From an uncultured virus (IMG/VR IMGVR_UViG_3300005917_000001) (taxonomy: Duplodnaviria > Heunggongvirae > Uroviricota > Caudoviricetes): a DNA stretch of 64,000 bases. Where the stretch lies: the IMG/VR virus record IMGVR_UViG_3300005917_000001. The stretch is one strand, 5' to 3'. The notes beneath the pieces are model-generated. The model worked only from the letters and a program-made list of their open reading frames with translations. It made no database searches and was not told the DNA's origin. The first letter of the stretch is position 1, and each line of letters opens with the position of its first letter. The position numbers and the translations under genes are program-made. This document shows positions 10,567 to 53,622 of the stretch, in pieces.

Positions 10567-11631
10567 TCACAACTGATCTCTCCACACCTTACTCGTCCGC
10601 ATCCCCTTAAACGGCGCCAGCATCATAACGGTTTTCACAACCTCTCCCGGATCGATATCCCCGGCCTTGCCCTGCTCGACAATGACCCGGCGGGCAAAGG
10701 GTTCCTCGGCGATCGAGGCCCAGTGATACCCGTGGACATTCGTGGTAAAACTCGGGCTCCAGTCAGGGGTCCGCTCTACAATACTCACCGTGGGTATGGC
10801 ATGGAGCCAGGACAGGTGCATAATGGCACCGTCAATGGTGATACACCCCGCGCATTGCTTGAGGATAGCCGTCTTGGTCCTGATTCCGATCTCATGGGTC
10901 AGATCGATCACCCGGTCCCCGGTCAGGATCTCCTTAAACGGTTCGCGCTCGTCCGGGGCGCCGAATACGGCCACTGCATAGTTCCGGTTCAGCAGATCCC
11001 GGATGATCAGCTTCCATCGGTTCACCGGATAGCACGCCCTGCCCGGATCATGGGTAAAGGGATGGATACCGATAATACACAACCCGTCGGACCGGGCCTT
11101 ATGGATCAGAGCCTTTGCCGCCTTCAGGTCATCCGGCCCGCAGGCGACCTCGGCCAATTCAAAGTCAAACTCGTCTACCGTCAGATCCATCTGCTGAAAA
11201 AAATCATCCATACAGATAGCCCGGATCCTCGGAAACCGGATCAGGGGATAGATACGGTTGACCACACGCCGGACGACCCATTCCGGATCCATCCCGGACG
11301 TATAGGCCGCCATAGCCCCCGGATCGATCCGGCAGGTATCGCGCATAAACCGGTCGATATGGGTCCAGTTGAAGTCACCGCCCCTCTGGTGGGCCGTGAC
11401 GATCTCATCTATCCCCGGATCCTTTTCAAAGATCTGCCGGGTCAGACCGGGATTCTTCCCGTCTAAATAAAGATATACCCGCAGCAGGGGAAAATAGTCC
11501 CTGAGGCTCGCCAATATCCTGAAATAGGCGTTGTTCTTATAATGATGCACCACATCACCGAGCCCGCCGCCTATATAGATAAAGGTCTTGAAATTAATCT
11601 GCTTCCGTATCGGTTCCCATCGCTCTTTCAT
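10567..11631 (-). CDS. Glycosyltransferase family 9-like
   Basis: GGLGDV, IGIHP, ITIDGAIMHLS motifs. Confidence 0.85.
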   Translation of the reverse strand: MKERWEPIRKQINFKTFIYIGGGLGDVVHHYKNNAYFRILASLRDYFPLLRVYLYLDGKNPGLTRQIFEKDPGIDEIVTAHQRGGDFNWTHIDRFMRDTCRIDPGAMAAYTSGMDPEWVVRRVVNRIYPLIRFPRIRAICMDDFFQQMDLTVDEFDFELAEVACGPDDLKAAKALIHKARSDGLCIIGIHPFTHDPGRACYPVNRWKLIIRDLLNRNYAVAVFGAPDEREPFKEILTGDRVIDLTHEIGIRTKTAILKQCAGCITIDGAIMHLSWLHAIPTVSIVERTPDWSPSFTTNVHGYHWASIAEEPFARRVIVEQGKAGDIDPGEVVKTVMMLAPFKGMRTSKVWRDQL

Positions 11632-12710: not shown

Positions 12711-12712
12711 TT

Positions 12713-12912
12713 CCTCTCACAGAGCCCACAGACCCGCCTGCCTCGCGTTGCGAAGCATTGCGGGCAGGGGACACAGAGTTTTTAATTTTAAAAGATTTTC
12801 TCTCACAGGGCCCACAGACCCGCCTGCCATCGCCTGGCACTGGCGGGCAGGGATCACAGAGTTTCTAATTTATAAATCTTTTCTCTGTGCCCTCTGTGCC
12901 TCTGCGAGAGAC
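12713..12912. repeat. CACAGAG palindrome with duplicated arm and two CCTG-hairpin inserts (12733-12768, 12819-12851)
   Basis: Both inserts sit at cacaga^g. Confidence 0.9.
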
Positions 12913-12927
12913 TTTTTTGCCCTTTAT

Positions 12928-14643
12928 TCAAAATCGGAGTCTTCGCTTACCTCGATGTTCATCTTTTCCCACCCCCGTCCCATTCCCACTTCTTGCCGTA
13001 AATATCTCCCATCGATTCCCCGACACCAACGGATGCGCCGATACCCGGCCGCCGACCGCGTCATCGGGTATGAGCCCGGCTTTTTTCAGCTTCCAGTGCC
13101 ACCAGGTCGTATCCCGGATACAGACATGGGTCGGGTCCTGCTTGATTTTGTGCACCCGTTTTTGGGTCTCCTTATCAAAATAATCCGTGGCAATGGCAAG
13201 AAAGGCCAGCCCTGCGGGCTTTAGGACCCGTTCGATATGGTTTAGCGCATCAAGTACCCGCGTCTCCGGTATATGTTCGAGACAGTCCCTCGAAATTACC
13301 ACATCAAAGAACCCGTCTCTGTAAGGCAGACCCATGGATACATCCGCCTGCTTCAGGGTCGAAACGTGCCGGGTTTTAACCGTATATTTGGAGATATCCA
13401 CCCCGTGGGCGTCGATACCCTGTTGGCGCAGGTGATACACGAGATCCCCGAACGCGGCCCCCACATCCAACAGCCGGTCCCCGGGCGAAAGCCCTAACAC
13501 GTCGATGATAAACCCGGCATAACTCTGGTGGAACGTGTTGTCAGTGCCCCAGGCCTCCGCGTTGTACCAGCCTAAATGCCCCCGCTTCATAAAATAATCC
13601 CGGTCAAAGGCCTCTGCCGGATCAGGGGCGTTCAATATCTCCTTTAACTCACGGGTGATCTCCTCCGGCTGGATCGATTCGAGACAGAGGGGCGGATAAT
13701 CTCCCCACTCCTTGTACGCGCACTTGAGCGCATCCCAGCAGGGACAGTATACCCAGTCGCCCTTAAACGGCTCTACCCGGTCCTGTTTTCCCACCACTGT
13801 GGAATATGGCAGCCGGGTCCCTTTGGCCCGTCGCTCTATTATTCGCAGGTTCAGGTGGTATTTCCCGAAAACCCGCAGGTCTTCGCACCCGAATACGGCC
13901 ACCGTGGGCCTCGCAGTGAGCTGAGAAATCCAGAACATGGCCGATGCCGGGGCAACCACCGCGTCTAATAAGGATGTCACGGCCATCCACTCTCTGAGAC
14001 CGAGACCGCGGCAGGTTATTCCGCCCTTGATCGGGAGATCCCTATCATGAAATATCAGGGGAAGCGCCCCTTCCTGCCGGCACCAACCGATCAGATCCTG
14101 CACAAGTGGTATGGGGATGTCCTTCGAAGGGTGGGAGGTAACCGGCGCGATTCCGATCTTCTTTCCCGGACCCAACCGGTCGAGATATTCACGGGCAAAG
14201 GTCATTTCTTCATCCGTAAAGGTCAGATGACCCCGATGTGAGGTCAGGGACAGGCCAATGGACCCGGCCAAAACATCGGCCCGGTTCCGGGTTACCTCAG
14301 GCATGGCCCGGCGCTCGACCTTACCGGGCACCATGGTGATATCCTTGATCAGGACATAGTGATCCTCTACCGTGTCCATATTCAGGGACTCGACCGCGAT
14401 CTTATGATCGATAAAGGGATGGTCCTGGATCAGGGGTAAATACTTCCGGGGGACCGCAAAGGTGACCTCGCCGACACCGGGCACTTGCTTCAGGTCCTCG
14501 AAGAGCAGACGGGCACAGAGGATATCGCCGATCCCGCCCAGACGGTTAATCAAAAGCACCCGGCGGGTAGACAACAGCTCGAAACGCTTGCGGATGTCCT
14601 GCAGGGGCTTTACCACATGAGTCTTTTGTCGAAAATCAGGCAT
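12928..14643 (-). CDS. GT9 glycosyltransferase fused to a SAM methyltransferase
   Basis: N-terminal GGIGDIL; C-terminal LLDVGAAFG, DCLEH, RVLKP. Confidence 0.88.
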   Translation of the reverse strand: MPDFRQKTHVVKPLQDIRKRFELLSTRRVLLINRLGGIGDILCARLLFEDLKQVPGVGEVTFAVPRKYLPLIQDHPFIDHKIAVESLNMDTVEDHYVLIKDITMVPGKVERRAMPEVTRNRADVLAGSIGLSLTSHRGHLTFTDEEMTFAREYLDRLGPGKKIGIAPVTSHPSKDIPIPLVQDLIGWCRQEGALPLIFHDRDLPIKGGITCRGLGLREWMAVTSLLDAVVAPASAMFWISQLTARPTVAVFGCEDLRVFGKYHLNLRIIERRAKGTRLPYSTVVGKQDRVEPFKGDWVYCPCWDALKCAYKEWGDYPPLCLESIQPEEITRELKEILNAPDPAEAFDRDYFMKRGHLGWYNAEAWGTDNTFHQSYAGFIIDVLGLSPGDRLLDVGAAFGDLVYHLRQQGIDAHGVDISKYTVKTRHVSTLKQADVSMGLPYRDGFFDVVISRDCLEHIPETRVLDALNHIERVLKPAGLAFLAIATDYFDKETQKRVHKIKQDPTHVCIRDTTWWHWKLKKAGLIPDDAVGGRVSAHPLVSGNRWEIFTARSGNGTGVGKDEHRGKRRLRF

Positions 14644-15845: not shown

Positions 15846-18800
15846 TTACTGACTTCCGACTTCCGACTTCTGACTCCTGGCCGTTCGCCCCATTCTGCGT
15901 TTCATCTCACTCCTCGCCCTCTTCCTCGCTCCTGCGACAATCCGCTTTATCATACGCTCCTTCCACTCTTCCCGTCTGTTGGCCCATCCGCTCGCACTCA
16001 TCAGCCGTTCTAATCTCGGTCTCGCCATGTTACTCGTCCGCTCGAGGTAGTTCTCGTACTGGTCATTTCCCATCTTATGCTTCACACCGCCCCACGAAAA
16101 AGTCCGTCCGGCGGGACCCGGCAAACTCGCCCCTTGCTTCAACATTCGGATCAGGGTCTCATAAACAGGATCTTTTCCCTTTTTCTTGACAATGGGTAGT
16201 ATGGCGCCGGAGGCCCCGGTCTCGGCTATCTCGGCCAGTCTTTCGCGATATCGCTGCTCAGCCGCGGCTTTTTGCTCATCCGATTTCTGCGGATCATTCT
16301 TTATCCGGTACAGCTCCTTTCTTAGATCCTGGACATTCACCGCGGCAATAGCCCGGGTCTGGCTCGGACTCACGGCCACAATATTAAACCCGAACCAGCG
16401 GGCAAAGGCCTGTCCCGGTGTGACCTTTTTGTCCCATTTGTCTTTCTTGCCTTCTACGGCCTTGATGCTGTAACCCAGGGCCCCCTTATCCGGAGACAGC
16501 ATAGACGGCATCCAGGTAAAGGCCAGAAACTGGACCACTTTGGCCGCCTTCATAGGCGCCGGATCCAGCTTGTTGTATAAGGGGGTGCCATAGAAAGGAT
16601 GCTGCGGGGGCTGATCGCGCACGGCCGATTTTATCATCCATGCAACATCGAGATACGGGTTTGAAATGCCGAGTCCCTTGAAGATCTCGCCCGCGTCCCT
16701 ATCGGACACGTCCCGGCCCAGGTTCAGCCAGTTGCCCCAGGGAAAGAAATATTCCGCGTTCACCCACTGCCACTGGCCTTCAGGCGTCTTTCGCGGCAGG
16801 ATCATCATGGATGCCGACTTTTTGATATAGGCCGGGAGCTGCTTTTCCAGATCATCCCAGTCATCGTCATCGAGATCGAACATGGACCGGGTCAGTGCCT
16901 CCATGGCAAAGGGCACGGCCATAAACTTCAGGATCACCCAGGGTCGCTTTTTGAGCGATTCGGCAATGAGCGGGGCTATCTTATATTGATAAGAGGCAAA
17001 TGGAATGTAGTGTTTTCTCGCACTTTTAACAGACCGGGAGGCGAGAGAATAATCCATTCCCCACTTCATGGCCTCCAATACCGACTCATCTACCGTATGT
17101 CCTGCCTTACGCATCTGCAAAAATATGGCGTGCTTACTGAAATCGTCGATCTTCCCGTACCAGCGTGCCAGCCGCTTGATCAACATCAGGGCATTATGGT
17201 AACCGCCGCCGGCCGCTTGAGCCTTACGGACCTCGTCCAAAACATCGTTTATCTCGGTCTGTGCCCAGCTTGTATTGAAAATCCCGTGACTAAACGCCTC
17301 CTCGTAATACTCATCTTTTGCCGTTGCTGATTTTAATGCAGCAGGGATGTCCTTAAACATCACAGACAATAAGGGTCTTCCCCTCATATTATTCTGCATG
17401 ATATTTGAGATCACGTTCCTGAAGGCCGTAGGGAAATTAAGCGCCACCTTGCCCATCTTAAACAAGGCCATACCCTCGGTCTCGATACGGCCCAATGTCT
17501 CCCACACCTTGCCCTTGTCAGAGTAAAACGCCACAACCGGCATCACATCCTTTGCGATCGGCGTCTGCACAAACGCCCCTGCCAACGGGCCATAGCTCTT
17601 GGTAGTGGGGAGCTGGGTGTAGTCCCCGGGTACGTTCTTTGTGTCTTCAATGGCCTTGTCGAGAGCGGCCTGCAGGTAATCCCGTTTTTTCTTGATCTCC
17701 TCGGACGGAGACTTTTCCATCATCTCTTTATATTTATCCACCTCTTCGATCAGCTTGCCGATCCCCATCTTGACGGTAGTCTTTTGCCCTTTACGTCCGG
17801 GCCATCTCGGTACCTCCACCATAGACGGCGTCCATACCCATTTATCGTTTGCCGCGATCTTTTCGAGATAATCGAACTTGGCAATATCGGTGAGCGCCTT
17901 ACCCATACCCACGGGTATGGCGATCGATGCGTCTTCGATCAGACCGAGGGCCTTTTTTTGATCCGCGGTGAGGTCTTTTCGCTGTTTGGCATAGGAGAGA
18001 TTCAGCTTACCCGTGGAGGTGGTCACTGCACCGACTTTATCCCCTAATATATGATACGCATACATATAATGGACATAATGCCCCTTCATCTTATCAAAGC
18101 TCTCCTGGCTGATAATCCCCCGGTCCACCAGCATCTGCCCGATGACCGTGGTCTTTTCCTTCAGCGCCACTGCCAAAGACCGGGCCTCTTCAGGCAGAAG
18201 ATTCTCGTCGATCTGCCCGTCCATAAAGCGGAAAAGATCCTTTTTCACCTCATCCGGAAAGGCGTCCAACTTCTCGTGGATCTTGTCGATATATCGCAAT
18301 GCCCGCGCCGCGGCGCCCATCCCCTCATATCTGGCAAACAGCGCCTCATCCCCCTCCGGCACAGTAGAAAACGGCTTCCAGAACTCCTTAAAATGCCCCC
18401 AAAACCGCCGCAAAGCCGACCGCTTCGCATCCCGATCCCCAGTCAACCCAGCCACACTCGCCGGCTTGGGTTTCCCTTCCTTTCGGATGCCCTTTTTCTT
18501 TTCATTCGTTATCGGAGTCTGTCGCTTACCTCGTCGTTCGTCAATCGTTATCGGAGTCTGTCGCTTACCTCGTTGCTCTTCCCTTCCAACCACCGCCTCC
18601 CGAATCACCCCTCTAATATCTCCCTCCCGATACTTTGTTCCTAAGCCAATTTCCCGATATCCATATCTCACATTAATCCCGGCCTTACGCAGCATCGCCT
18701 TGACCGCCCGGATAATACGATCCCACACGGTCTTTGGCAGGGTGTCATTGACCATTCCCTCCACAACCCACTCTTCCGCCGCCTCGGCCCGGCCCTTCTC

Positions 18801-21800
18801 CGTCTCAAGATCCAGGCCCCTGGCCTCGGCCACAACACCTACTGCCCCTTTATTCTCCTCATAAATCTTAGTCAGAACAGCCTTGGCCCGGTCACCCAGA
18901 CCCGAAGCCACGCCGTCATGGAACGCCTCATGGACAAAGACATCGACCACATCCTGCTTGCTGTCCATAGCATCGGTAAACAGATAAATAGTCCGCTTCC
19001 CGGTCGCAGGATCAGTATCATACAACCCCCGCGTCAAAAAACCCGACGGCTCCTCCCGCCCTGCCTTGGCCCGCTCCGCCACATCAGCCGACAACTCAGC
19101 CTCAGAACCCAGCGTCACAATCTCATGAGCGCGAAGCCCCTTAAACACCTTGGAAAGTGATTCGGAAAGATCCTTAACAACAGGCCCGGATAGACCTTTG
19201 GGGGTCTTTGTGGAGGCTATGGACAGCCGCACATCACTCCCCAACCGGGCATCCCGTGCATCCTCTCCAAGCCGCCCGGCGCGGTATTGAGCAAGCTCAC
19301 CGTCGGCATACGACTTCCCCTTTTCCAATACATCTAAAAGGTTTAAGCTCCCGAGGTTTTCCTCTACCAGTCCCTGGACATACTGTTTTCGGGCAGTGCT
19401 GTCCGAATCGTTCTTTATAATCAGTGTCGAGGCGTTAATCTTTTCTGCGAGCTTAAGTATGTCAAGGGTGGTCTGCTGCATACTCCGGCCCTTGACAAAG
19501 GGTAGAAATGCAACCGGTACATTCTGCCCGGTTAACAGCAAGATCCCGTCCTCGTTATTCAGGCTTTGATTAAAAAAGGGTATTACCTGTGCAGAGCTTG
19601 TTAGCCCCGGGACCTGTGGCGCATAGGCCCTGCCAGTCCTGCGCCTTACCTTTTTAAGCAGGGTCTTTCGTAAAGCAGGTTTGATCCGCTTAGGGGTGCC
19701 GGTATCGGTAGGTGTGAAATCGAGGTATTTTTTACCAGTGATGATTATTGATTCAGTGGGGATCTTGGCAATTTTAAGGAGCCTGTTTATATCCTTGGTT
19801 ATGGCAACATCCGGGGAAGAAGTGGCCGGGTTATACGATGGATGGTTATGGGCAAAATAAACCTTGGCAACCCCGGGGACCTGGAGAGCGCGACCCACTA
19901 CAATATCAGAAAAGACAGTGCCGGCGGACCTGCCGCCCTTGCTATGCTCATGAATTTCAAGAATAGTGCCGTTCTCGTCAACGGCTACTGAGAGGAAATA
20001 TTCGTCTGGCTCGGTTCGGATCCGGGCGAGGAGGGTGGCGAGGTCTGCGGTGTTTGTAACCACGTTGCCTGCCGCTTTAATATTTCCGGAGGTCCGATAT
20101 TGCACACGTCCAGCACCGGGTAAGGCACGGCCTTCTTCTTTACCAGGCACAAGTGCAATTTCTTCGGGCTCGGTGTTTTCATAAATCGGTTGTTCATTTT
20201 GCGGTACCTCAACCCCCTCGTCAAAGAGGTCGATCTGTCCTTGTTCATTTTCAAATAACCCTCGTTGTCGTCCAACATTAGCGGGTTTTATACCTTTGTC
20301 AGCGGGAAATACCGGCTTTTTACCCTTCTTGGTGAGACCTTTCTTTTTGGCCTCATCCTGTGCCCGGGCTAATCTTTCCTTCTTGGTTAGTTCTTCCGGC
20401 TTTAAAAGAGGTTCTTCAGGTTTACCAAAGAGAGATTGCTGTTCTTTGAACCATATATCAAGCTCATCTATGGCGTCTTGGTCGTATTCTCCGTTTTTGG
20501 CTTTGCGTTCAGCTTCCGCATAAGCCTCTTCCAGCTCCTGATCCGCCTCTCTTTCGCCATCTCTTTCAGCTGCATCAATGTCATCTTCTGATTCCCCCGC
20601 TTCGCGTTCACGGTCCTTTTGCCTTATATACTCATCCTCCTGCAATTTGTCAAGGTGTTCTTCACTTTCATAGTCAGAGAGCTTCTCCGTGGGATTGTTT
20701 TCGATATATTCTATCAGATCATCTTCCGTGGCATCTTGCGGCAGCCATCCCGCCTCGATCATAGCCAGGGTCATCTCATCGGTCCCGAGACCGGTCTTAT
20801 TATTCAGTATGGATATAGAGACCCCGCCGGGGCCTTTGGTGATATCCCTGATCTCGCCCTTATAACTCATACGGGTTGTTCTCAGCCCCCCTGCGTGTTT
20901 AACGGCGGTCTGGAAATCCGGGGCATCCCGCAACAACTCCCTGCGATGCGCCGTAGCCTTTTCCTCTTCAAGAATCAGCCTTGCATCCCCGGTCGGCTTT
21001 TCAGCCTTCTCCTGCCATATATACCCGTCACCCTCTTTGATTAAATCGTAGTCAAACTCTGACTTCTTGGCCTTTTTCAAACCCGCCGCCGCAGACTTCT
21101 CCGTCTTAAAAGGCTTATCTGTTTTAGTCCGGATTACGGCAGGCTCTGCCGCTTCCTTCTGACCACTGACCACTGACTCCTGACCACTGACCACTGCCTC
21201 CTGACCACTGACCACTGCCTCCTGACCACTTTCTTTTTTTTCTGCCCCTATCTTATCGTTCACCCCTTTAAGCAGCTCAAATCTCCCATACCCCTCCGGT
21301 AACTCCACCTCCAGTGCCCCTGCCATCTGCTCTAAATCCACCGTCCGCAGATCCTCGGGCACAAACTCATCAGACAGCGCCATCTCCCACAACTCCGCCC
21401 GCTCCTCTTCGGTAAGAGGAGGGACCTCCGGACCGGGGGTGGCGCCCTGATCCGGAGGCGTTGGAGGGATGACCGCTGCCGGAGGGGGTGAGGTCTCCGG
21501 CGGGACGATATCAGGTAAAACCGCTTCGCCCTCCCGCTGTTCTTCCGTTCCACGTGGAACACCCGCCTGCGAACGCCTGGCACTGGCGGGCAGGTCCAAT
21601 CTTTCCTCGATCGGCGTCTCCAAAAGCGTCTCAAGCGCTATCCCTTCCGCCCCAATCTCTTTTATCTCCGTCTGCGCATCACCTACTGGATTCTGGATAC
21701 TGGATTCTGGATGCTGGATACTGGATTCTGGATGCTGGATACTGGATTCTGGATGCTGGATGCTGGATACTGGATGCTGGATACTGGATTCTGGATGCTG

Positions 21801-23036
21801 GATACTGGATTCTGCCTCGCCTACCTCATCCACCTGCCCGGTATCCGCCCCCATCCCCTGGCCGTCATCGACCGGCTTTTCCGCCTCGCGCCCTACGCCT
21901 GTCGCCATAGACATCCCGCCCCCGGCTATTCCGGCGGGAAGAAATACCGTTGCCGCCTGCTTCATGGAGTCCGAAAACATTTCTTTCCACTCTTCAGGAA
22001 CGGGTTTGCCTTGTATTATTTTCGCTGCAAGTTGTGACGCCACTTCCGCGGGCTCTTCCAGTGCTTCGGTAGTGCCTTCAGTCAAGAAATTCACTAAAGC
22101 CTTGCCGCCTTTAGCCATTAACCCCTGACCGGCATGTTGCATCAACTTACCCACAGAAAAAGCGTTCAAGGCAAACACCGCGGGAGCAAACAAACCGGCC
22201 GCAAGGGTCGCTTCCTCGTGGCTACCGGTTTGCTTTAAAACATTCTGGTAAGTTGCGGTTGCTTCAAGCCCTACTCCAATGGCGCCTCCCGTCATTTTAG
22301 CCCCTATGTCTGCGAGACTTTTTATAAGGGCAGGGGCCATCTTGGTGGCCTTTCCTGCTGTAGTGATTATTTTATGGGCTTGCATGGAAGGTAAAATCAT
22401 AGCCCCAAGGTCTGTACCAAACTCCGCAAGCGTTCCGGCCCACCAGGAAGCGTCTTTAAGTATTTCAGGATTATCTATTGCATTCTTTCCCTTAAACTTT
22501 TCAGCTTGTTCAAGACCCCATTCCTTCTGTTTCCGCTGAAGGAATTCTACATTGCCTTCAGCCCACTCAGCGATTTTTCCACCTGCATCGGCAACACCTA
22601 ACTTTCGCTCCAACCAGCCGCTTTCGGCCTGTTTTCCGAGCCATTGCAATCCCGTATTTGCGGCCTCATTCCATCGCAGCGCCGCCCTTCCAACACCTTT
22701 CGCGGCTTCGGTCAGTGCGCCAGGGCTTGCCTCTTCTACCCTCTTCATCCGTTCGGCCCCGTACCGTTCCAAGTCCTCGAGGACCGGATAGTTATTCGGG
22801 GCCTCCTTCCATTCCCCTATCTCATCGATCCCGGCCTGCAGGAGCTTCGAATCCCGGTCGGGATTATCCCGGATCAGCTCCTTGCCCCGCTGCGAGATAA
22901 ACCCAAACCGCTCCTCGGGCGTATAAGTATGGGCCTTGGGCCTTTGCGGGCGCGCCAATGAGGCTAACAGCCGCTCGTCCTTCTCCTGCTCCTGACGTAT
23001 AAACCCCGCAATATCAGCTAAATTTGAAGATGGCAT
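15846..23036 (-). CDS. Giant polyvalent/internal virion (injection) protein
   Basis: 2396 aa; JAB/RadC-like HNHPS...SSPD, metallopeptidase-like HEAFH...EE, helical LPD-like C-terminus. Confidence 0.8.
21159..21228. repeat. In-frame heptamer array (SGQEAVV repeats)
   Basis: 10 units of CTGACCA/CTGCCTC/CTGACTC. Confidence 0.85.
21546..21561. promoter_or_regulatory. parS-like palindrome
   Basis: CGTTCCACGTGGAACA, 15/16 match to TGTTCCACGTGGAACA. Confidence 0.5.
21562..21594. repeat. 33-bp CCTG-hairpin element inserted in frame
   Basis: cccgcctgcgaacgcctggcactggcgggcagg; variant of the intergenic copies. Confidence 0.85.
21686..21811. repeat. In-frame heptamer array (SSIQHPE repeats)
   Basis: 18 CTGGATN units, 126 bp. 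Confidence 0.9.
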
Positions 23037-40213: not shown

Positions 40214-41311
40214 TTAGAGCATCCTTTCTTCCATAACGTCGTCGAGGGCGTCATTGAGTGTCACGGCCTTGGGCTTCGAGGGTTTCTCTTCGCTCCGATC
40301 GGCCGCGGACGTACCGAGAGGCAAATTCTCCTCCTGGTGTTCATCGCTCTTCTTCTCTGCCGCCTTCTTCAGACGCTCCTGGAAGCGCTGCTCCTGTTTT
40401 GAGTGATAATCCTTGGTCTGCTGTACGGCGAAATCTATCTGCTCGTCAAAAGAGAGCTTTTGGCCGTCCGGGCCTTCGGTAGGGGTAAAGCTGCAGGCCA
40501 TCCGGAAATAATCGTCATCCGGATCGATCCCTGCGGTCTTAGCCTGGTCTTTCACTGCCTCCCAGACGGTTCCCTCGCTCTCGCCCGACGGGGTCTCTTC
40601 GGCTTTCGCCGCGCCCGCTTCGCCTTCCGCCATGCTCTCTGCGCCCTGCGCCCTGCGCTTAATATCAACCGCCGAGTCTTTCTCGGCCCAGATCCGGGAT
40701 ACTTTGTTACGGTAAGTCTCGTCCTCCGGATCCAGATCGTCGATTTTGACCAAGGCCTTCTCGTGCTCCTCGGTCATAAAATCCAGCAGATTCTTATCGT
40801 CCTGTTCCTGTGTTACCCTCTGTTTTTCCGCGTCTCGAGCCTTATCGAGTTCCTGTCTCAACCGGGCGGCCTCCTGCTCGACCTTAGAGGCCTTTGCCTG
40901 AATATGCCGGTAACCGGTCTCAGCGTCTTCCTGACTCTTAAAACGGAGTGGTTTTTTACCTTCATCCGGCGTCTTCTCTTTGTCCTGAGTTCCCGCCGCA
41001 TCCTCTTCCTTTTTCTTTCCATCCGGCGTCTCTTCTTTGTCCTGAGTTCCCGCCGCATCCTCTTCCTTTTTCTCTCCGTCCGGCGTCTCTTCTTTGTCCT
41101 GAGTTCCCGCCGCATCCTTTTCCTTTTTCGGAGGGCTGTCCTGATCATCGGATTTCGGGGTAATGGTCGCTTTTTTCTGCTCTGCGCTTTCCGCTATGCG
41201 CTCTGCGCCTTCTTCCCGGGCCGCCTCAACGAGTTCTCCCTGGAATTTATCCATGCCGTCCACCATCGCCTGATCCAGATCCAGCGTAGTCTCCTCTTTC
41301 TCTGTTCCCAT
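40214..41311 (-). CDS. Scaffolding protein
   Basis: Acidic and helical; three 20-aa repeats DAAGTQDKEETPDG at about 40964-41128. Confidence 0.75.
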   Translation of the reverse strand: MGTEKEETTLDLDQAMVDGMDKFQGELVEAAREEGAERIAESAEQKKATITPKSDDQDSPPKKEKDAAGTQDKEETPDGEKKEEDAAGTQDKEETPDGKKKEEDAAGTQDKEKTPDEGKKPLRFKSQEDAETGYRHIQAKASKVEQEAARLRQELDKARDAEKQRVTQEQDDKNLLDFMTEEHEKALVKIDDLDPEDETYRNKVSRIWAEKDSAVDIKRRAQGAESMAEGEAGAAKAEETPSGESEGTVWEAVKDQAKTAGIDPDDDYFRMACSFTPTEGPDGQKLSFDEQIDFAVQQTKDYHSKQEQRFQERLKKAAEKKSDEHQEENLPLGTSAADRSEEKPSKPKAVTLNDALDDVMEERML

Positions 41312-41361
41312 AAAAAACCTCCGATTTCCTGTTATTGGTTATTCGATATTGACCGGGGCAT

Positions 41362-41441
41362 AAAAAAAGGCCGATATGGAGTGTATGGACCCCATACGGC
41401 CTTAATTTTGACTCTCAAAGGTGATCAAACCCCTAAAAGCG
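41362..41441 (-). terminator. YTGATC-loop hairpin plus terminator, copy 3
   Basis: ggt-TTGATC-acc; aaggccgtatgggg/ctccatatcggcctt and T-run. Confidence 0.8.
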
Positions 41442-41524
41442 CCCCGTTTTTGATTGACTATTGACTATTGACTATTGAAAAAACTCTGTGTTCTCTGTGC
41501 CTCTGTGAGAGACCTTTTTTAACT

Positions 41525-41851
41525 TTAGGCACTCCCTATCCCCATGTTTGCTTGATACAGCTTATCCACAGCCACCTTGGCCGCATTAAACTTGTGTCCC
41601 ATATCCTTCAGGACCCCGAGATACCCCTGGGCCTCGGGATCATCCTGTATTAATTGCAGCAGCCGGTGTTCCAACCGGGTCAGCAATAGATCCTTAAACC
41701 GCTCTCCCTCTTCGGAAACCCCCAGGGCCAGATCCTCGGCCTGGGCTCGCAGTTCCGCCTCGGACTGTGCCTTGCGGCTCGCCCGGCGCTCCGGGTCTGC
41801 CTGCTGTTTGGGCCGCAGACTCACCACATCCACCTTAGCTCCTGATTCCAT
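41525..41851 (-). CDS. Hypothetical protein downstream of portal
   Basis: Helical 108-aa ORF with GGAGG RBS. Confidence 0.7.
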   Translation of the reverse strand: MESGAKVDVVSLRPKQQADPERRASRKAQSEAELRAQAEDLALGVSEEGERFKDLLLTRLEHRLLQLIQDDPEAQGYLGVLKDMGHKFNAAKVAVDKLYQANMGIGSA

Positions 41852-41865
41852 TGCAGCCCTCCGGG

Positions 41866-42020
41866 CTGGTTATTAGTTATTAGTTATTGGTTATTAGTTA
41901 TTTGTAAAAACTCTGTGATCTCTGTGTGCTCTGTGAGAGAAAATCTTTTAAACTTCGCCGTTCCTGCTGCGCCTTCGCCGTTCCTGCTGCGCCTTCGCCG
42001 GTGGCCCTGCTGCGAGAGAC
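41866..42020. repeat. Composite intergenic module
   Basis: TTATTAG array, CTCTGTG arm, CCTTCGCC repeats; near copy of 44742-44875. Confidence 0.85.
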
Positions 42021-42040
42021 TTTTTCCCTTCATTCAAAAT

Positions 42041-43945
42041 TCAATGTTCGACGTTCGTCTTTTTAGCGTTCGTCTCTTCCTTCCCCTCCAGCTTCTCCGC
42101 CAGATCCACCACCCCTTTCAGATCCTCCACTTCCTGGGCATCCGCCGCCGCTTCCTTTGCCTCTGCCTCTTCCTTTGCCACAACCTGTGCGATCTGTTTT
42201 GCCTCATCCTTGGAAACAAGCACACCCTCGTCATTCAAATTCACCCTCTCCACAATCGATTCCAGGGTCTTGAACGGCAAAATATACGGCGCAAATCTTG
42301 GCTTCTCGGCCAGCGGCACGATAATCTCCTGCAGCGCCTTCAGGGTCTCGTTTTCCTTCATAAGCGCCTGTATGCCGCTCACATGAAAAGATCCGTCAAA
42401 GACCGGCACACCCGTTACCCCGTTTGCGGCTTCAGGGTTGGGGGCTATTCCGTATTCAAGCAACTCGTCCGCGCTGAAGATCCGGGCGTAATCCTGATAT
42501 CCCGCGTGGGTTCCGATGATCTCCAGCCCTGCATCTATCCCCTGAATAGCCCCGCGTTCGATATTTTCGCCCATAAGCGAGTAGACACCCATGGCCTGGT
42601 CGAGATTCTGCGCCGACTCGCGGGCGGTCATATCCTGCCGGTATCCCGGGAGACCCTGGACCGCGTCGGTCACAAACGACCCCCGCTGAAACTGCTGGTC
42701 GTGATACTGCACACTGGCAAGCACATCATTGATCCGGCTGCGCCGCTGCACCTCGCGCACGGCCTGCTGACCGCTGATCGTATCCTTTACCGCGTAGGTC
42801 TTGCCGGGCCATGACTCCACATCGGTCGGGTCCACCAGGGCATCTACATTGACCTCCGTGGGCGGGTTGACAAGCCACTGGAGGCGATCCTGCTGAAGAC
42901 ACATTGAGGTGTTTATGGCCTCCCACACACTCAAAACCCCTTCGAGAAGACCTCTGCCCCCGAATGCGAGAAGACCCGGCAGCGCTGAAAAAGAGATACC
43001 CGGCCATCTGAGCCGTTTATAGGGAACGCTTTTAGGTTTCTGGATGACACGGTTTCCGGCCACGGTATAGGTTGCCCTGGGCAGCAGAACCTCACCTTTG
43101 GGATCCAGGATGATCCCCCAGAACTCGGAGGTGAGTATCAATTTCCGGAACTTCGACCGCTCCCAGATCATATTCTTACGGGCCGAGATCGCATCTTTTG
43201 TCATAAAGGGATTCTGTGGGTCTTCGCCGTCCGTTTCCTTGGCCCGGGCCACGTCAAAATAGCGGCCCGACTTCTCGCCCTTGAGCAGTACAAAATAATC
43301 GAGCCATTCCTGGTGTATCCAGTAGATCCCCGATTGGCAGTCACGGGCCAGGGCATCCGGGTCGCGCTGTATCTTCCACGGTTCCACTAAGGCGAATTCC
43401 AGCCCCTTGCCGGGTACCCAGCGGGGGATCATCTCAAGACTGACGCCCACGGCCAGACCCATGGTCACGGCATCGGTGAACCGGATCACAAAATCGGAGT
43501 GGGTGCTGTTAAGATGTCTCTCCATGACCTTCTGGTGGAAATCGGCCGCCGTCTTATTGGTGGCGTTCTCCACACTCAGATAATTGGGGGAAAACGCCTT
43601 TTTGACTGCCGCGGCGCCGTACTGGACCGTCTGGAACGGTTTGGGCGCCACATACCGCGACTGCCAATCTTCCTTGTCCGCGTAAGACTCGGGCTCGTTT
43701 TCGTGATAAACATTCCAGCAATCGTTCTGGATCCTGCGTATCCGGGCCTGGGCCTTGACCGACTGCTGGATACAGTCGTTGCAATAGTCCACAAAATGCT
43801 GCTCGTTCTCGCCCGCATAGGCCCGGGCCGCCCCTTCCCGCTCCTTCAGCTCCTGGTCATCACGTACCTTGAACGGAGAAAGGGTATCCATCTCCCGTTT
43901 CCGGTTCAAAAGCTCAAATTGTGGATCCGCCATTTTTATCGGCAT
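42041..43945 (-). CDS. Portal protein
   Basis: 634 aa; downstream of terminase; podovirus-type size with ALVEPW...DP and FGGRG segments. Confidence 0.8.
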   Translation of the reverse strand: MPIKMADPQFELLNRKREMDTLSPFKVRDDQELKEREGAARAYAGENEQHFVDYCNDCIQQSVKAQARIRRIQNDCWNVYHENEPESYADKEDWQSRYVAPKPFQTVQYGAAAVKKAFSPNYLSVENATNKTAADFHQKVMERHLNSTHSDFVIRFTDAVTMGLAVGVSLEMIPRWVPGKGLEFALVEPWKIQRDPDALARDCQSGIYWIHQEWLDYFVLLKGEKSGRYFDVARAKETDGEDPQNPFMTKDAISARKNMIWERSKFRKLILTSEFWGIILDPKGEVLLPRATYTVAGNRVIQKPKSVPYKRLRWPGISFSALPGLLAFGGRGLLEGVLSVWEAINTSMCLQQDRLQWLVNPPTEVNVDALVDPTDVESWPGKTYAVKDTISGQQAVREVQRRSRINDVLASVQYHDQQFQRGSFVTDAVQGLPGYRQDMTARESAQNLDQAMGVYSLMGENIERGAIQGIDAGLEIIGTHAGYQDYARIFSADELLEYGIAPNPEAANGVTGVPVFDGSFHVSGIQALMKENETLKALQEIIVPLAEKPRFAPYILPFKTLESIVERVNLNDEGVLVSKDEAKQIAQVVAKEEAEAKEAAADAQEVEDLKGVVDLAEKLEGKEETNAKKTNVEH

Positions 43946-43962
43946 GGTTCAGTCTCCAAACC

Positions 43963-44078
43963 TACCTCTCGCAAAGATACAAAGTTTAAAAGATTTTCTC
44001 TCACAGAGGACACAGAGGACACAGAGAAAAGATTTATAAATAAAAGACTCTGTGATCTCTGCGGTCTCTGTGAGAGAC
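43963..44078. repeat. CACAGAG palindrome
   Basis: Standard arms. Confidence 0.85.
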
Positions 44079-44140
44079 TTTTTTTCCCTTCATTTATCAT
44101 CGGAGTCTTCGCTTACCTCGGTTATTCGTTATTCGATTGT

Positions 44141-44419
44141 TCAGTCCGCATTCGGCACTGTGCGCGGTTTCGCCTGTATCTTCACCCGGGATAAAATCCC
44201 GGTGGTCCCCCCCACAGTCATCTCGGCAATCATCATACAGTCATACGCACTGCAAGCCCTGTTAATCTCGGCCAAACACTTCTCTTCCCTCATCTTGTCA
44301 TCACCCACAATCATCTTCGGGCCACCCGCCGCCATAGCCGCATCCTGCATCGTCTTGAAATCCTTACTATTGTCCACACCCATCCTCCTCATTCCCTTCT
44401 TAATCGATCGTTTAGCCAC
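44141..44419 (-). CDS. Hypothetical protein
   Basis: Start reassigned to GTG after GGAGG; upstream extension is a TTGATTG array. Confidence 0.55.
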   Translation of the reverse strand: MAKRSIKKGMRRMGVDNSKDFKTMQDAAMAAGGPKMIVGDDKMREEKCLAEINRACSAYDCMMIAEMTVGGTTGILSRVKIQAKPRTVPNAD

Positions 44420-44465
44420 CTGTTTCCTCCACCCCTTTCGATTGTTGATTGTTGATTGTTGATTG

Positions 44466-44726
44466 CTAAATCCGCGCGCCCAACGCATTCGGAAATATCC
44501 GGTCAAAATTCGCCTTGTACGGCCTGCTCACTCTCCCCGGCGCCCAGTCCTCACTCCTGGACTTACAGCCGGCATGGCAGCCCCGGGGATCCGGCTCGCC
44601 ATTATGCCCCTCATCCGGAAAGGTCTCGGCCCCGCAGTCCTTACACTTAAAGATCTCATTCTTCTCACCCTCCTGATCATAGGGCCCCCCCTCCGTCATC
44701 TCCCAATACCTGTCGTACTTCCCCAT
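44466..44726 (-). CDS. Small Cys/His protein
   Basis: CKDC...H...CHAGC; C-terminal YKANFDRIF. Confidence 0.65.
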   Translation of the reverse strand: MGKYDRYWEMTEGGPYDQEGEKNEIFKCKDCGAETFPDEGHNGEPDPRGCHAGCKSRSEDWAPGRVSRPYKANFDRIFPNALGARI

Positions 44727-44741
44727 TGCAGCCCTCCGGGC

Positions 44742-44875
44742 TGGTTATTAGTTATTAGTTATTAGTTATTCGTAAAAACTCTGTGATCTCTGTGTGCTCT
44801 GTGAGAGCCTTTTTTTCCCTTTGCGCCTTCGCCGTTCCTGCTGCGCCTTCGCCGGTGTCCCTGCTGCGAGAGACT
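44742..44875. repeat. Composite intergenic module
   Basis: About 85 bp including the RBS near-identical to 41849-41940. Confidence 0.85.
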
Positions 44876-44894
44876 TTTTCCCTAATCATCAATC

Positions 44895-46364
44895 CTACCC
44901 CACCGCTCTCATCCCAACCCTCGATCGGCCCCCGTAATTCCCTCCGCGATAAGACCGCGCCAACTTCGTCTTTTTCATCTTCTCTTCAAGACTGAGTCTT
45001 TTATTTTTCGGCAACTTGACATACGGAAATAGCACACTCACCATGTACGCAAACGCATCGCCCGGATGCGAAAACTTGTCCTTGACAGGCAGGGTACCCA
45101 CGATGTTTCCGGAATTATCTTTTTTCCAGTGCCAGCCGCCGTTGAGGGCGCGGTGAAGCAGGTATGCCGACTTTGAAATAAAAATCCTGGGGGAGCCGTC
45201 TGTGGCAGACATGAGAAGTGAGGTTTTGAGTGGATCGATCCGCGATACCCATCGGGTGGGTCCCGGTTCAAAACGGGTCTTGAGCATACGCTCCACCCGT
45301 TTGGACGCCGACTCGATCCGGGTGGACTGGTCCGGGGTCCGCATGGTCAGATCGCCGATATCCCGCCAGTCAAAAATATTATTCTTGTACTTATTATTCT
45401 TGTACTTGGGGCTGTTGAGCAGGGGTTCGACCTTCTCCGCGATTAATTCCTTAACCCCGATATTATCGCCCGCACACACATCATGTATCCACAGCTTGCC
45501 TGGCGGTACAAACTGACCGATAACACAACAGGGGCTATGCCAACCGTCCCAGCCGCGTACACCGATACCGCCCCTGACCACCGGTAAAACCGTGTCTCTA
45601 CTGAAATGTTTCAGGGGGTTATACTCGGGTGTGACCTTCTTCCCCCTCATCACCGGGGCGGCCCGGCCCTCGATATACCGAGCCTTCTTTCCCGGGTCCC
45701 TGCTGAATGCGGCAATATGGGCGGCCCTGGCCTGGGGGTTTAAAAACTTGTTTTCGCGGTATTTAATACGATAGATTTCTTTGTGGATCTCAAACCCGGT
45801 CTCCGGATCAACTGCAAGGATATCCGGTCCGGCGGCTAATTCCTCGGTCCAGTGATCCTCATCCGCCGGGTTCTGGGTGATCTGCAATCTCATCAGGGTA
45901 CCCTTCTGCCGGGCGGCCCTGGCAAGGGCCATCTCAAACACCTCGTATGGGAGACCCGCATTCGCCTTCTCAATAATAGGCGCGGGTTCTTCAAGCCAGA
46001 TCACCGAGTACTGCGGGCCTTGTAATTTTGACAGGGAGGCCTCGTCATCGATACCGAAGCAGTCCATCTCCACCCTCGGGGTGGAATGGATGATCATCTT
46101 TTTGTCGTCGTCGTGAAATGAAACCCGGGACCCGAACATCTCCCTGATGTCGGGCGCCGTGGATATCTTGATATTCTGGTGGGTGTCCCTGACAAGTGCG
46201 CCTCTTATAGGCCGCCCGCATCTCGCAGCATGACGGACCAGGGCGATTGCCCCGGCGAATGTCTTACCCTCGCCCATTGGACCCATAAGCATGACCACCT
46301 CTGCAGCGGAATGCACAAAGGCGTCCTGGGTCTCGGAGAGTTCCACAAACCAGCCGTCAGCCAT
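44895..46364 (-). CDS. terL: Terminase large subunit
   Basis: GPMGEGKT Walker A, IWLEE Walker B, TQNP, nuclease GWDG...SHPGDAFAY; start reassigned to MADGW. Confidence 0.93.
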   Translation of the reverse strand: MADGWFVELSETQDAFVHSAAEVVMLMGPMGEGKTFAGAIALVRHAARCGRPIRGALVRDTHQNIKISTAPDIREMFGSRVSFHDDDKKMIIHSTPRVEMDCFGIDDEASLSKLQGPQYSVIWLEEPAPIIEKANAGLPYEVFEMALARAARQKGTLMRLQITQNPADEDHWTEELAAGPDILAVDPETGFEIHKEIYRIKYRENKFLNPQARAAHIAAFSRDPGKKARYIEGRAAPVMRGKKVTPEYNPLKHFSRDTVLPVVRGGIGVRGWDGWHSPCCVIGQFVPPGKLWIHDVCAGDNIGVKELIAEKVEPLLNSPKYKNNKYKNNIFDWRDIGDLTMRTPDQSTRIESASKRVERMLKTRFEPGPTRWVSRIDPLKTSLLMSATDGSPRIFISKSAYLLHRALNGGWHWKKDNSGNIVGTLPVKDKFSHPGDAFAYMVSVLFPYVKLPKNKRLSLEEKMKKTKLARSYRGGNYGGRSRVGMRAVG

Positions 46365-47022
46365 CCTTCTTGCTCCCGACGATATAGGGTTTGTATGTTG
46401 AATGGTCTTCCTTGTTGTCTTCCGGACGTTTGCCGCCCGTGCGATCCACGATATAGATCGGGCTCTTTCCCTCATCGTCTAATAATCCGGCCTGTCTCAA
46501 CTTCAGATCGATGATCTTGATGGCCGTGTTCATAGCCTTGTCCCGCTGTAACTGGAGCCGGTCCTCCCGGGCCATATAGATCAGGCATTCCCGGATGATC
46601 TTTCTGACCAGGACATCGATATCCTCGTCTTTGCCCGTAAAATACGTGTCTGAAATTAGCATCCACCGCCACAACTGCACTTTCCCCATGATAGCGACTG
46701 CGGCATCGGCCATCCGGTCTACCCGGTCCTTACCCGCCTCCCTGGCCCACTCAAGGCACTGGCCCTCCATCTCTTCGAGGGCCTTCAGGTCCTCAGGCAC
46801 CACCCTGTCCACATGGTCGCGGATGGTCTTAAACGCCTCATCCGTGGCCGCATTGCGGACCTTGCCCACATAACGGGCAATGGACGACTCGGACACCTTT
46901 GCATCCGGGTTTTCGATCTTGACCTGGGCCGCGATCCGCCGGGCAGAAAGCCCTTCGGTCACCAGCTCCTGAATCCGCCTGTCAAGCCCCATCTGCTCGA
47001 TCTTGGTCCGTCTGTTGGCCAT
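46357..47022 (-). CDS. Terminase small subunit candidate
   Basis: N-terminal HTH (GLSARRIA...VSESSIARY); overlaps the terL start. Confidence 0.65.
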   Translation of the reverse strand: MANRRTKIEQMGLDRRIQELVTEGLSARRIAAQVKIENPDAKVSESSIARYVGKVRNAATDEAFKTIRDHVDRVVPEDLKALEEMEGQCLEWAREAGKDRVDRMADAAVAIMGKVQLWRWMLISDTYFTGKDEDIDVLVRKIIRECLIYMAREDRLQLQRDKAMNTAIKIIDLKLRQAGLLDDEGKSPIYIVDRTGGKRPEDNKEDHSTYKPYIVGSKKDG

Positions 47023-47037
47023 GTCGCCTACGGCTCC

Positions 47038-47128
47038 GGTTATTAGTTATCTGTTATTAGTTATTAGTTTTTGCCCTTCATTCATCATTCGATGTTCGAT
47101 GTTCGATGTTCAATGTTCGATATTCGTC
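47038..47128. repeat. TTATTAG and TTCGATG heptamer arrays
   Basis: 7-bp periodicity. Confidence 0.8.
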
Positions 47129-47159
47129 TTCTTAGAGTTCGTCTTTTTAAGCTGCTCAT

Positions 47160-47319: not shown

Positions 47320-47584
47320 CGGGTTTTTGAAACGATAGGCCTACAGGTGGGCAAAAAACCGGCTGGAGGTATTCCCGGCCATTCTCGGGAATTATCGTGG
47401 AAGAAAAAAATGTAGATTTTTAAAAAAAAGACTTGACAAGGGTAAAAAAGAGGGAGTGATGCCTGCCCGCCATCGGCTTCGCCTTCAGGCGAGGCGGGCG
47501 GGATTGTCGATTATTGATTGATGATTGAAGGGCCAAGGGCGCCAAGTTGCGGGTTACGGATTGCGGGTTGGTGGATTAGCCTTG

Positions 47585-47809
47585 TTATACCCTGAGGACG
47601 GACGGGGGCATATGAGCGTAGACAATATTCCATGTTGGATGCAATGTGAATATACCTAAATTTCCAGCAAATCGAACTCGCAAATATTGTCCCCTTGACC
47701 CGACAATCCAACCTCTTGATGGCTCAACGTGTTCACATTTCTGAAATGTGATTTCCATTCCCCGCTTTGCTGGAACCCCATACGTATCTCTAATATATTT
47801 CATGCTCAT
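47585..47809 (-). CDS. Cassette gene, hypothetical
   Basis: YIRDTYGVPAKRG...LHPTW; stop lies in a TAAC R'' box. Confidence 0.75.
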   Translation of the reverse strand: MSMKYIRDTYGVPAKRGMEITFQKCEHVEPSRGWIVGSRGQYLRVRFAGNLGIFTLHPTWNIVYAHMPPSVLRV

Positions 47810-47817: not shown

Positions 47818-47877
47818 CTATAACGTGGAATTAAGCGGAGCAGTCTTTTTCGCTTCCGCTTGAATGAGTGGTTATGA
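47818..47877 (-). mobile_element. attC site
   Basis: TCATAAC-5nt-ATTCAAGC...GCTTAAT-5nt-GTTATAG with the extra L'' base. Confidence 0.85.
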
Positions 47878-48237: not shown

Positions 48238-48300
48238 TCATAACGTGGAAATGAGCAGACGGCGTGTTTTTAGCCGGTATGCTCGATTTCTTGGTTATCG
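48238..48300 (-). mobile_element. attC site
   Basis: CGATAAC-5nt-AATCGAGC...GCTCATT-5nt-GTTATGA. Confidence 0.85.
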
Positions 48301-48545
48301 TCAATGCGCCCATATATGACACTGTGACCCTTTCCAGATAAGGCAATTTGATCAATATCTGCATGACTATCAAAATAGTCTGCAACCCATTCAGGTGCGC
48401 CACTATCATTGTCTATTGGTTGTGGGCCTTGCGCATGAAACGTTCCTTTTATTTGTAATTCACCTATTGCATGGGCACCGAAAACTTTCCGGCCATTACT
48501 CCCTTTCATTGCAAAAGTGAAAGATCCTCCATCTACGAATGGCAT
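48270..48545 (-). CDS. Cassette gene, hypothetical
   Basis: Start MPFVDG after AGGAGG; reads into the attC. Confidence 0.7.
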   Translation of the reverse strand: MPFVDGGSFTFAMKGSNGRKVFGAHAIGELQIKGTFHAQGPQPIDNDSGAPEWVADYFDSHADIDQIALSGKGHSVIYGRIDDNQEIEHTG

Positions 48546-48564
48546 AAAAGCCTCCTTTCTAAGA

Positions 48565-48620
48565 CGATAACAAGTGATTATATAGATCCGCATAACTTCG
48601 GTTTTTGGAGGTTATGCGGA
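48565..48620 (-). mobile_element. Array-head element, copy 1 (attI-like or half attC)
   Basis: TCCGCATAAC...GTTATGCGGATCTATATAATCACTTG^TTATC; repeated at 53567-53622. Confidence 0.65.
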
Positions 48621-52205: not shown

Positions 52206-52247
52206 CGCCCAGATCAGCCGCTCGTCCGCTGGAACGGCTTGTTATAT
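52206..52247 (-). mobile_element. Degenerate terminal attC
   Basis: ATATAAC-5nt-GTTCCAGC...GCTGATC; R' GTT replaced by GAA. Confidence 0.6.
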
Positions 52248-52598: not shown

Positions 52599-52658
52599 AT
52601 CTAACGTGCAGGTCAGCCGTGGAACGAAGTGGAATCGGCTGAATCAGCCTCGTTATAC
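52599..52658 (-). mobile_element. attC site
   Basis: GTATAAC...TTCAGCCG...CGGCTGA...GTTAGAT. Confidence 0.75.
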
Positions 52659-52904: not shown

Positions 52905-52969
52905 GTATAACGTTGAGTTAAGAGGTGCGGCGGTCCTTTGCCGCAACCTTCTTAAACGATTTGTTATCT
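52905..52969 (-). mobile_element. attC site
   Basis: AGATAAC-5nt-GTTTAAGA...TCTTAAC-5nt-GTTATAC. Confidence 0.85.
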
Positions 52970-53249: not shown

Positions 53250-53306
53250 GCATAACGGTTTAATCAGCGGCCGCGTTTAGCGGTCGGCTGAAGCGGCTGG
53301 TTAGCT
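53250..53306 (-). mobile_element. attC site
   Basis: AGCTAAC-5nt-GCTTCAGC...GCTGATT-5nt-GTTATGC. Confidence 0.85.
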
Positions 53307-53546: not shown

Positions 53547-53566
53547 GTAACACTCCTTTTCTAAGA

Positions 53567-53622
53567 TGATAACAAGTGATTATATAGATCCGCATAACTC
53601 CACAAAACCGGAGTTATGCGGA
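53567..53622 (-). mobile_element. Array-head element, copy 2
   Basis: Near-identical to 48565-48620 except for the hairpin interior. Confidence 0.65.

Follow-up and report, generated by a model that had tools for sequence, protein, structure and literature searches.

We analysed a 64,000-nucleotide stretch of viral DNA, hereafter the window, which comprises bases 1-64,000 of the 65,957-base virus record IMG/VR IMGVR_UViG_3300005917_000001; the record has direct terminal repeats and is rated complete. It is the genome of a temperate phage, whose genes include an integrase, a reverse transcriptase and Mtd-type tail gene, terminase, capsid, helicase, primase and a second tyrosine recombinase. 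Two short arrays of integron cassettes lie in it, array 1 behind position 48571 (three genes, two full attC sites and the left half of another) and array 2 behind 53573 (four genes, three full attC sites and a left half). With two or more attC sites and no integron integrase gene (intI) nearby, both are attC clusters that lack an integron-integrase (CALINs). No integron integrase (IntI) was detected in the complete phage, the top TIGR02249 score over the whole record being 29.2 bits against a cut-off of 265. Directly ahead of the first gene of each array stands a copy of one and the same element, as an earlier note made from the letters alone had described; both stretches are real and lie where that note placed them, on the minus strand, which it had not given. 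Judged by its sequence, the element is a real feature with the computable properties of an integron attachment site (attI), and is neither a complete integron nor an attC or attG site; we refer to it as a solo attI.

In each copy, box 1 is followed by 14 nt, an inverted box 2, 2 nt, box 3, 5 nt and the crossover triplet G^TT, amounting to 49 bp and four boxes (Table 1). Boxes 1, 2 and 3 are variants of a single 9-bp motif with the consensus CC(G/A)(C/T)ATAA(C/T), and box 3 together with GTT has the L box/5 bp/R layout of the simple site of an attI. The TATAAT hexamer reported just before the GTT is present as the L box that closes box 3, although it sits 5 nt and the G ahead of the crossover. 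What had been described as a variable hairpin interior does differ between the copies, but its length is fixed at 14 nt and its orientation is opposite in the two, which agree at 3 of 14 positions as read and at 9 of 14 after reverse complementation. Boxes, L box and 5-nt spacer are identical in both copies, whereas flanks and genes differ, and the common sequence extends ~15 nt beyond the crossover, into the ribosome-binding region. Both the inverted-arm pattern and the 31-nt right part (≤3 mismatches) occur twice in the window, against none in 100 shuffles, and covariance-model matches in the window are confined to these two places. In agreement with the earlier note, a search of 220 nt around each copy detected no upstream R''/L'' arm able to pair with the L box.

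Aligning homologous elements across genomes, a check which that note had proposed, gave 41 distinct sites (from 48 raw sites) on two phages, a prophage, plasmid-like contigs and chromosomes; one cyanobacterial site with a score of 14 (L042) is a doubtful member included in every count. These sites have no conserved left arm and are not full symmetric attC sites. The name phage attI is probably apt as regards attI, but the family is not specific to phages. Scanning 185,579 genomes with arm gaps of 6-30 nt produced 37 matches, nine of them with exactly 14 nt; a metagenome scan produced 19 loci, two of which are the window phage, and a viral scan one second phage (L066). Pattern scans of IMG/VR returned the window phage, L066 and two loci with other spacers that were excluded from the family (L023 and L024), and nothing else; L023 shows, at 3001-3040, a similar hairpin/TATAAT/GTT layout with a 7-nt interior. 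No match was obtained among INPHARED phages or PLSDB plasmids with 60-66-nt queries. With a looser pattern, 16 of the 93 genomes in the Competibacter-type order to which genome G002 belongs yielded 21 sites (reversed-pattern controls, 0), and 2 of 401 genomes in the phylum of genome G001 also matched. The covariance model built from the 41 sites matched 54/93 genomes of the Competibacter-type order and 23/151 of the Desulfosarcina order; a single genome gave as many as 12 matches, and the weaker ones include intI-linked attI and decayed integron heads.

Upstream of the sites lie plasmid Rep/ParA-type genes, resolvases, transposases, terminase or portal genes, and chromosomal genes such as pepA/holC, selD and cbiG. 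Neither an IntI nor its remnant was detected in the flanks of the 41 solo sites (21 with the full 4 kb upstream, four with less than 1 kb), and none of 21 sites checked is on a contig with an intI match, so that the adjacent intI of a complete integron is missing. Defence-type genes occur behind some solo sites, among them a SMODS nucleotidyltransferase with a 4TM effector, Shedu SduA and Mrr (L137 8117-10495; L083 745-1779; L146 5510-6379); the cargo of related sites also includes TIR genes. One array, at L130 (7208-8945), contains two solo sites that are separated by 1,677 bp and by cassettes lying within that interval.

The first five host genomes tested all encode an IntI elsewhere in the genome. 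A copy of the usual host attI was considered and rejected as an explanation of the site, no full element being present in 42 intI loci (some of them overlapping); the attI adjoining short IntIs are unlike the element, as are those of a 464-aa class. The link emerged only through locus L225, where the element's right part serves as the attI of a neighbouring IntI whose N-terminus is much extended. Of 22 loci of this long class, 17 have scores of 20-36 for the right 28 bp; the remaining loci comprise three at contig edges, one with a short IntI and one scoring 16. Among loci of the Desulfosarcina order the score reaches at least 15 in 11/28, one of these on the operator pair described below and not on an attI, whereas 4 is the highest value among 33 other IntI loci. 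An identical spacer variant is carried in G001 by the solo site and by the attI of the long IntI. The long enzymes form an IntI subfamily of ~430-560 aa with an extra N-terminal domain and an attI of their own (L225, L274-L292, L324-L353), and many pseudogenised copies are seen in Competibacter-type genomes. The attI of the second long class, of 464 aa, has short direct repeats.

Box 1 at 14 bp is missing from the intI-linked attI. An inverted pair does occur ahead of the long intI: the best box-14-box pair begins 10-18 nt before the start codon in 21/28 Desulfosarcina-order loci, and the mean pair score peaks at a spacer of 14 (7.3, against ≤3.1 for other spacers from 8 to 21). Other spacers cluster at the same place too (10-18 of the 28 loci), because one box drives them. 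Ten loci allowed the distance between the pair's right box and the attI box of like orientation to be scored, and in nine it is 64-67 bp. At L305, a model match outside the 41 sites which represents a deleted long intI, two box-14-box pairs stand in tandem; two other such matches, L263 and L267, lie behind a generic recombinase. From these positions we infer that the long IntI may bind the inverted pair. Matches to the long-IntI N-terminus are found in 7/16 site-bearing genomes of the Desulfosarcina order as compared to 21/135 others (p = 0.013), which is suggestive of co-occurrence of site and enzyme; the corresponding figures for the Competibacter-type order, 11/16 and 32/77, are borderline (p = 0.057) and include many fragment matches. 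Other IntIs may serve the site too.

A boundary at G^TT is apparent from conservation across the 41 sites. The free columns from -51 to -1 carry a mean of 1.1 bits, as compared to 0.26-0.57 bits at +3 to +6, a mean of 0.10 at +7 to +32 and 0.13 bits upstream of -60; TAA-N6-GTT was fixed in the search patterns, and the spacer columns, left free, hold 1.0-2.0 bits at 5/6 positions. Many of the pairwise flank alignments between sites terminate at the crossover. Behind holC, the element is present in 4/30 orthologous loci, of which one is interrupted and three are intact with three different first cassettes, and in prophage L149 the core behind the site differs. To locate attC sites we used a conservative detector trained on 24 attC from intI-linked arrays; it overlooked one attC of the window itself, at 48238. 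Within 2.5 kb, same-strand attC were detected downstream of 17/41 sites and upstream of 2/41 (p = 1.3e-4, downstream versus upstream), with opposite-strand attC at 4/41. The four variable bases behind GTT are complementary to R'' of the first detected attC at 2.88 of 4 positions as compared to 1.96 when permuted; the permuted value reached the observed one in 0/20,000 permutations, and pairs are perfect in 6/17 cases against 1.1 expected. Finally, one family of gene-less cassettes starts behind solo sites, behind the long-IntI attI and behind true attC, and G^TT is therefore an equivalent junction in all three. This gene-less cassette has a strong hairpin and a 137-142-bp attC, and is often first behind solo sites and the long-IntI attI (L150, L074, L090, L134, L277, L281, L283).

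Taken together, this analysis suggests that the solo attI probably captures attC cassettes at G^TT, with the long IntI supplied in trans by the host. Since the site matches the attI of one IntI class and has no intI beside it, the phage likely borrows a host enzyme, and the same seems to hold for related sites on plasmids and chromosomes. The earlier proposal of a dedicated cassette-capture site is thereby supported, by a match to the attI of an N-terminally extended IntI in the absence of intI, although the site is not confined to phages. As to its origin, a deletion of ~65 bp between direct-repeat boxes may have fused the operator pair to the attI and, by the same event, removed the promoter region between them; intI would then have been lost, and the compact site would have spread via plasmids, transposon modules and phages. 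Boxes 1 and 2 may be accessory sites at which the long IntI binds, perhaps through the additional N-terminal domain, and could recruit the enzyme to the site, much as DR1 and DR2 of attI1 do. The phage cassettes, which are co-oriented with the neighbouring phage genes, would mainly be read through from upstream. The element's relatives point to the Desulfosarcina order as a possible host group.

Several observations weigh against cassette capture at G^TT by the long IntI. No downstream attC was detected at 24/41 sites with the conservative detector, and at 21 further sites attC lay downstream (≤1.5 kb) in only 3/21 and upstream in 0/21; moreover, the sites are related by descent, and counts overstate their independence. 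Concerning the enzyme, the operator pair is mostly missing from 17 Competibacter-type long-IntI loci. The extra domain resembles the core-binding domain only weakly (8-12.6 bits in 4/5, the best shuffled score being 5.0), and two SAM_4 stretches appear in just 1/3; binding of the pair by the long IntI is therefore argued from position and box likeness. No long-IntI N-terminus match was found in 5/16 site-bearing genomes of the Competibacter-type order and 9/16 of the Desulfosarcina order, the genomes being incomplete and the queries single proteins. In the outer arms G-T pairs outnumber A-C pairs by 19 to 4, a hint of a hairpin on the top strand as opposed to binding of the duplex alone. Within the phages, the ~15-nt leader past the crossover is the same in 3/3 copies (both window copies and L066), and the first cassette of copy 2 matches its own R'' at just 2/4 variable bases. 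The shared leader counts against docking because repeated capture at G^TT should have displaced it.

Table 1 Features of the two solo attI copies, their cassette arrays and the phage's tyrosine recombinases; positions are those of the window.
Feature	Position	Strand	Remarks
Solo attI copy 1	48571..48619	-	Supported by pattern counts, covariance model and family alignment
Copy 1 box 1	48611-48619	-	Part of solo attI
Copy 1 14-nt spacer	48597-48610	-	Part of solo attI; inverted relative to copy 2
Copy 1 box 2	48588-48596	-	Part of solo attI
Copy 1 box 3, ending in L box	48577-48585	-	Part of solo attI
Copy 1 5-nt spacer; crossover G	48572-48576; 48571	-	Part of solo attI
Copy 1 leader and ribosome-binding site	48543..48570	-	First ~15 nt common to copy 2 and the second phage L066
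Array 1 cassette gene 1, 90 aa	48270..48542	-	No Pfam family; frame extends into its own attC
Array 1 attC 1, 63 bp	48238..48300	-	R'' 7/7 complementary to core behind site
Array 1 cassette gene 2, 132 aa	47831..48229	-	35-39% identical homologs in 4 phage records
Array 1 attC 2, 60 bp	47818..47877	-	
Array 1 last gene, 74 aa	47585..47809	-	phrog_2730, unknown function
Array 1 terminal truncated attC	47571..47590	-	Left half only (R'', L''); lower boundary approximate
Solo attI copy 2	53573..53621	-	Starts 5 nt behind helicase stop codon
Copy 2 box 1	53613-53621	-	Part of solo attI
Copy 2 14-nt spacer	53599-53612	-	Part of solo attI
Copy 2 box 2	53590-53598	-	Part of solo attI
Copy 2 box 3/L box	53579-53587	-	Part of solo attI
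Copy 2 5-nt spacer; crossover G	53574-53578; 53573	-	Part of solo attI
Copy 2 leader and ribosome-binding site	53547..53572	-	
Array 2 cassette gene 1, 81 aa	53301..53546	-	No family
Array 2 attC 1, 57 bp	53250..53306	-	R'' just 5/7 complementary to core behind site
Array 2 cassette gene 2, 90 aa	52964..53236	-	
Array 2 attC 2, 65 bp	52905..52969	-	Resembles attC of the first cassette of phage L066
Array 2 cassette gene 3, 92 aa	52613..52891	-	
Array 2 attC 3, 60 bp	52599..52658	-	
Array 2 last gene, 111 aa	52242..52577	-	
Array 2 terminal truncated attC	52222..52247	-	Left half only; lower boundary approximate
Phage integrase, 378 aa	811..1947	+	Not IntI (27.5-29.2 bits, cut-off 265)
Small tyrosine recombinase, 215 aa	59139..59786	-	Not IntI; nothing ties the gene to the element

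The leader bears on how much cassette traffic these phage copies have seen. In IMG/VR it is found only behind the element, and the three genes that follow it bear no evident likeness to one another. A common host cassette start was rejected as its source, with 15 matches in 251 host-order genomes against 27 for the reversed control, none of them in an att context by eye. Either the first cassettes derive from one scaffold, or the leader is a native flank without recent insertion. Contigs from 4 of 24 DNA runs, possibly including the window's own source, showed no joint at the sites or attC ends, though contigs lose rare variants. The sites could be attI-derived but inert in this phage, the site and its cassettes having arrived or been duplicated as blocks, with the leader as a frozen junction. 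The identical leader in the two phages fits such a history, as do the inverted spacer of copy 1, the truncated attC halves that close both arrays and the fact that all IMG/VR copies of the phage are 99.75-100% identical with the same arrays; yet boxes, L box and spacer have stayed identical between copies whose flanks and genes differ, prophage L149 has another core behind its site and the first cassette of copy 1 is 7/7 self-complementary, and we consider this account unlikely. A further scheme would make the solo attI a cassette workshop, in which the site retains a leader and ribosome-binding site of its own, an ordinary phage gene comes to lie between this leader and a downstream attC, and the host IntI, recruited for excision by the operator boxes, releases it as a new cassette. 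It is put forward because the leader precedes three unrelated genes, is absent from att contexts in the 251 host-order genomes, and accompanies phage-type cargo: one cargo gene has a 39% homolog that is part of a normal phage operon and whose flanks show no attC, and another belongs to a PHROG family. We regard the scheme as quite unlikely; if true, phages would not only collect cassettes from their hosts but also supply integrons with new ones.

Docking by a host IntI must also be set against readings in which the element is no attI at all, or not the target of an IntI. The earlier note had offered a cassette promoter as an option, and an element kept mainly as a regulated promoter, with the L box as -10, the inverted pair as operator or activator site for another protein and the start near the crossover, could account for the bases retained at -11 (A, in 95% of the 41 sites) and at -7 (T, in 100%), for a box 2-box 3 gap that varies by 1 nt and for the operator-like position of the pair ahead of long intI starts. 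No sigma-70 pair is present at either window copy, however; an unforced search found TATAAT in just 12/21 sites (variants CATAAT, GATAAT and TCTAAT), the expected -35 region is inverted in copy 1, and a promoter alone leaves the boundary at G^TT unexplained. As a primary function this is very unlikely, although it is not exclusive of docking, and given the retained -11A and -7T some weak promoter activity at the sites is possible, if doubtful. The phage's own small tyrosine recombinase or its integrase might act on the sites, both genes being in the same genome and the spacer being inverted between copies; the inversion, for its part, fits template switching in a hairpin. Neither enzyme is an IntI, no Pfam tyrosine-recombinase match was found among 105 upstream frames of other sites, tblastn near the 41 sites gave only FimB-like genes (at 2/41), and the lone recombinase on the contig of the second phage (52% complete) has no tblastn match to either enzyme, which makes their involvement highly improbable. 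The small recombinase is short, has no N-terminal domain and returned 3,600 homologs in a protein search.

The earlier note's other suggestion, that of a long attC reduced to its right half by loss of the left arm, is not supported. Its L'/5 bp/R' geometry is that of an attC and its box order resembles R''-L''-L'-R', but a left-arm candidate (≥5/7 pairs) occurs in only 10/41 sites, at scattered positions and at neither window copy, so that the palindrome, left arm and extrahelical base of an attC are wanting. The primary sequence is kept across phyla, unlike that of attC, it matches intI-linked attI, and folding as DNA shows no strand preference (24 versus 17); we give this origin almost no credence. 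Arm covariation scored 0.226 as compared to 0.152 when shuffled (0/500), with seven arm pairs altered on both sides against 6.0 expected (157/500) among these related sequences, and would be expected of a protein site with symmetric arms as well as of a hairpin maintained through template switching. The sites have no Rfam family, nor the hairpin and U run of an intrinsic terminator. A Xer/dif reading was discarded on geometry, since the arms are 7 bp apart, not 6.

Elsewhere in the phage, the reverse transcriptase adjoins the Mtd-domain tail gene (3924-4934 and 5248-6291), an arrangement resembling a diversity-generating retroelement. A 2,396-aa protein (15846-23036) has a RadC-like JAB domain at about residue 1000 and almost no family match in the rest, and a cluster of methyltransferase and glycosyltransferase genes lies amid the tail genes (9268-14643). 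The gaps between structural genes, at 41300-47130 and elsewhere, hold numerous short tandem repeats together with a dispersed family of 57-70-nt repeats, one of which is common to 739-795 and 47460-47515. Helicase and cassette-gene searches of IMG/VR returned only the window phage and therefore provide no orthologous phage locus for comparison. In run X22, one contig (depth 5, short side 34 letters) links the end of the helicase gene with sequence that precedes the small gene on the terminase side, a weak hint of a related phage lacking both arrays.

The site family provides a searchable 52-bp signature by which some intI-less arrays would be recognised as docking sites rather than debris, and it names a candidate partner enzyme, the long IntI. 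If this holds, a phage carries capture sites at a cost of ~50 bp each and samples host cassettes, and a single host integrase can serve many loci. The cargo of related sites includes defence-type genes. Our literature search, with most subscription papers outside it, found no description of the family or of its link to an extended IntI. Four origins of CALINs were listed by Cury et al., who reported that the attI is unknown for most integrons, that most intI-less arrays have no nearby intI pseudogene and that it is unknown how cassettes arise (PMC4889954); CALIN cassettes can be moved in trans (PMC9668308). CALINs and single attC sites lacking integron-integrases (SALINs) resemble our loci in that the arrays are short, distant from intI and free of intI pseudogenes, and are partly ascribed to insertion catalysed by an enzyme encoded elsewhere in the genome (PMC4889954, 10.1101/2022.09.11.507474). 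The secondary sites called attG have only a GWT consensus in that account (10.1101/2022.09.11.507474), whereas ~52 positions are conserved upstream of the solo site's crossover, and we therefore view it as a dedicated target, not a chance one.

With attI of the attI1 type the solo site shares the L/R simple site, a crossover after the G of GTT, two more upstream boxes and conservation within the class (PMC12901181, PMC8946536, PMC3146285). In attI1 the accessory sites are two direct repeats, which most environmental attI are described as lacking (PMC3146285), and non-cognate attI/IntI pairs are poorly active (PMC8946536, PMC12901181). The solo site differs in having no adjacent intI, in that its accessory boxes form an inverted pair 14 bp apart, in its up to 12 model matches per genome and in that the matching IntI has an extra N-terminal domain. 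Delta-attI-type cassettes likewise carry an attI away from intI that IntI recombines, including in attI x attI pairs; there, a truncated attI takes the place of attC at the cassette end (PMC12901181), whereas solo sites head arrays, follow core phage or chromosomal genes and have an attC upstream in just 2/41 cases.

The closest precedents are in phages, where intI-less cassette arrays like those in the window are known as CALINs (Qi et al. 2023, PMC9892861). In phage TJE1 the CALIN follows a hairpin with inverted core motifs, and in the Shewanella prophage M16-3 the integron array and a CALIN each have an attI at their head (PMC9892861); an attI at the head of an integrase-less array in a prophage has thus been published already. 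M16-3 carries its own intI and a host-type attI (PMC9892861), whereas the window phage is complete and has no intI, and the solo site represents a separate, compact form, scattered over plasmid-like contigs and chromosomes as well.
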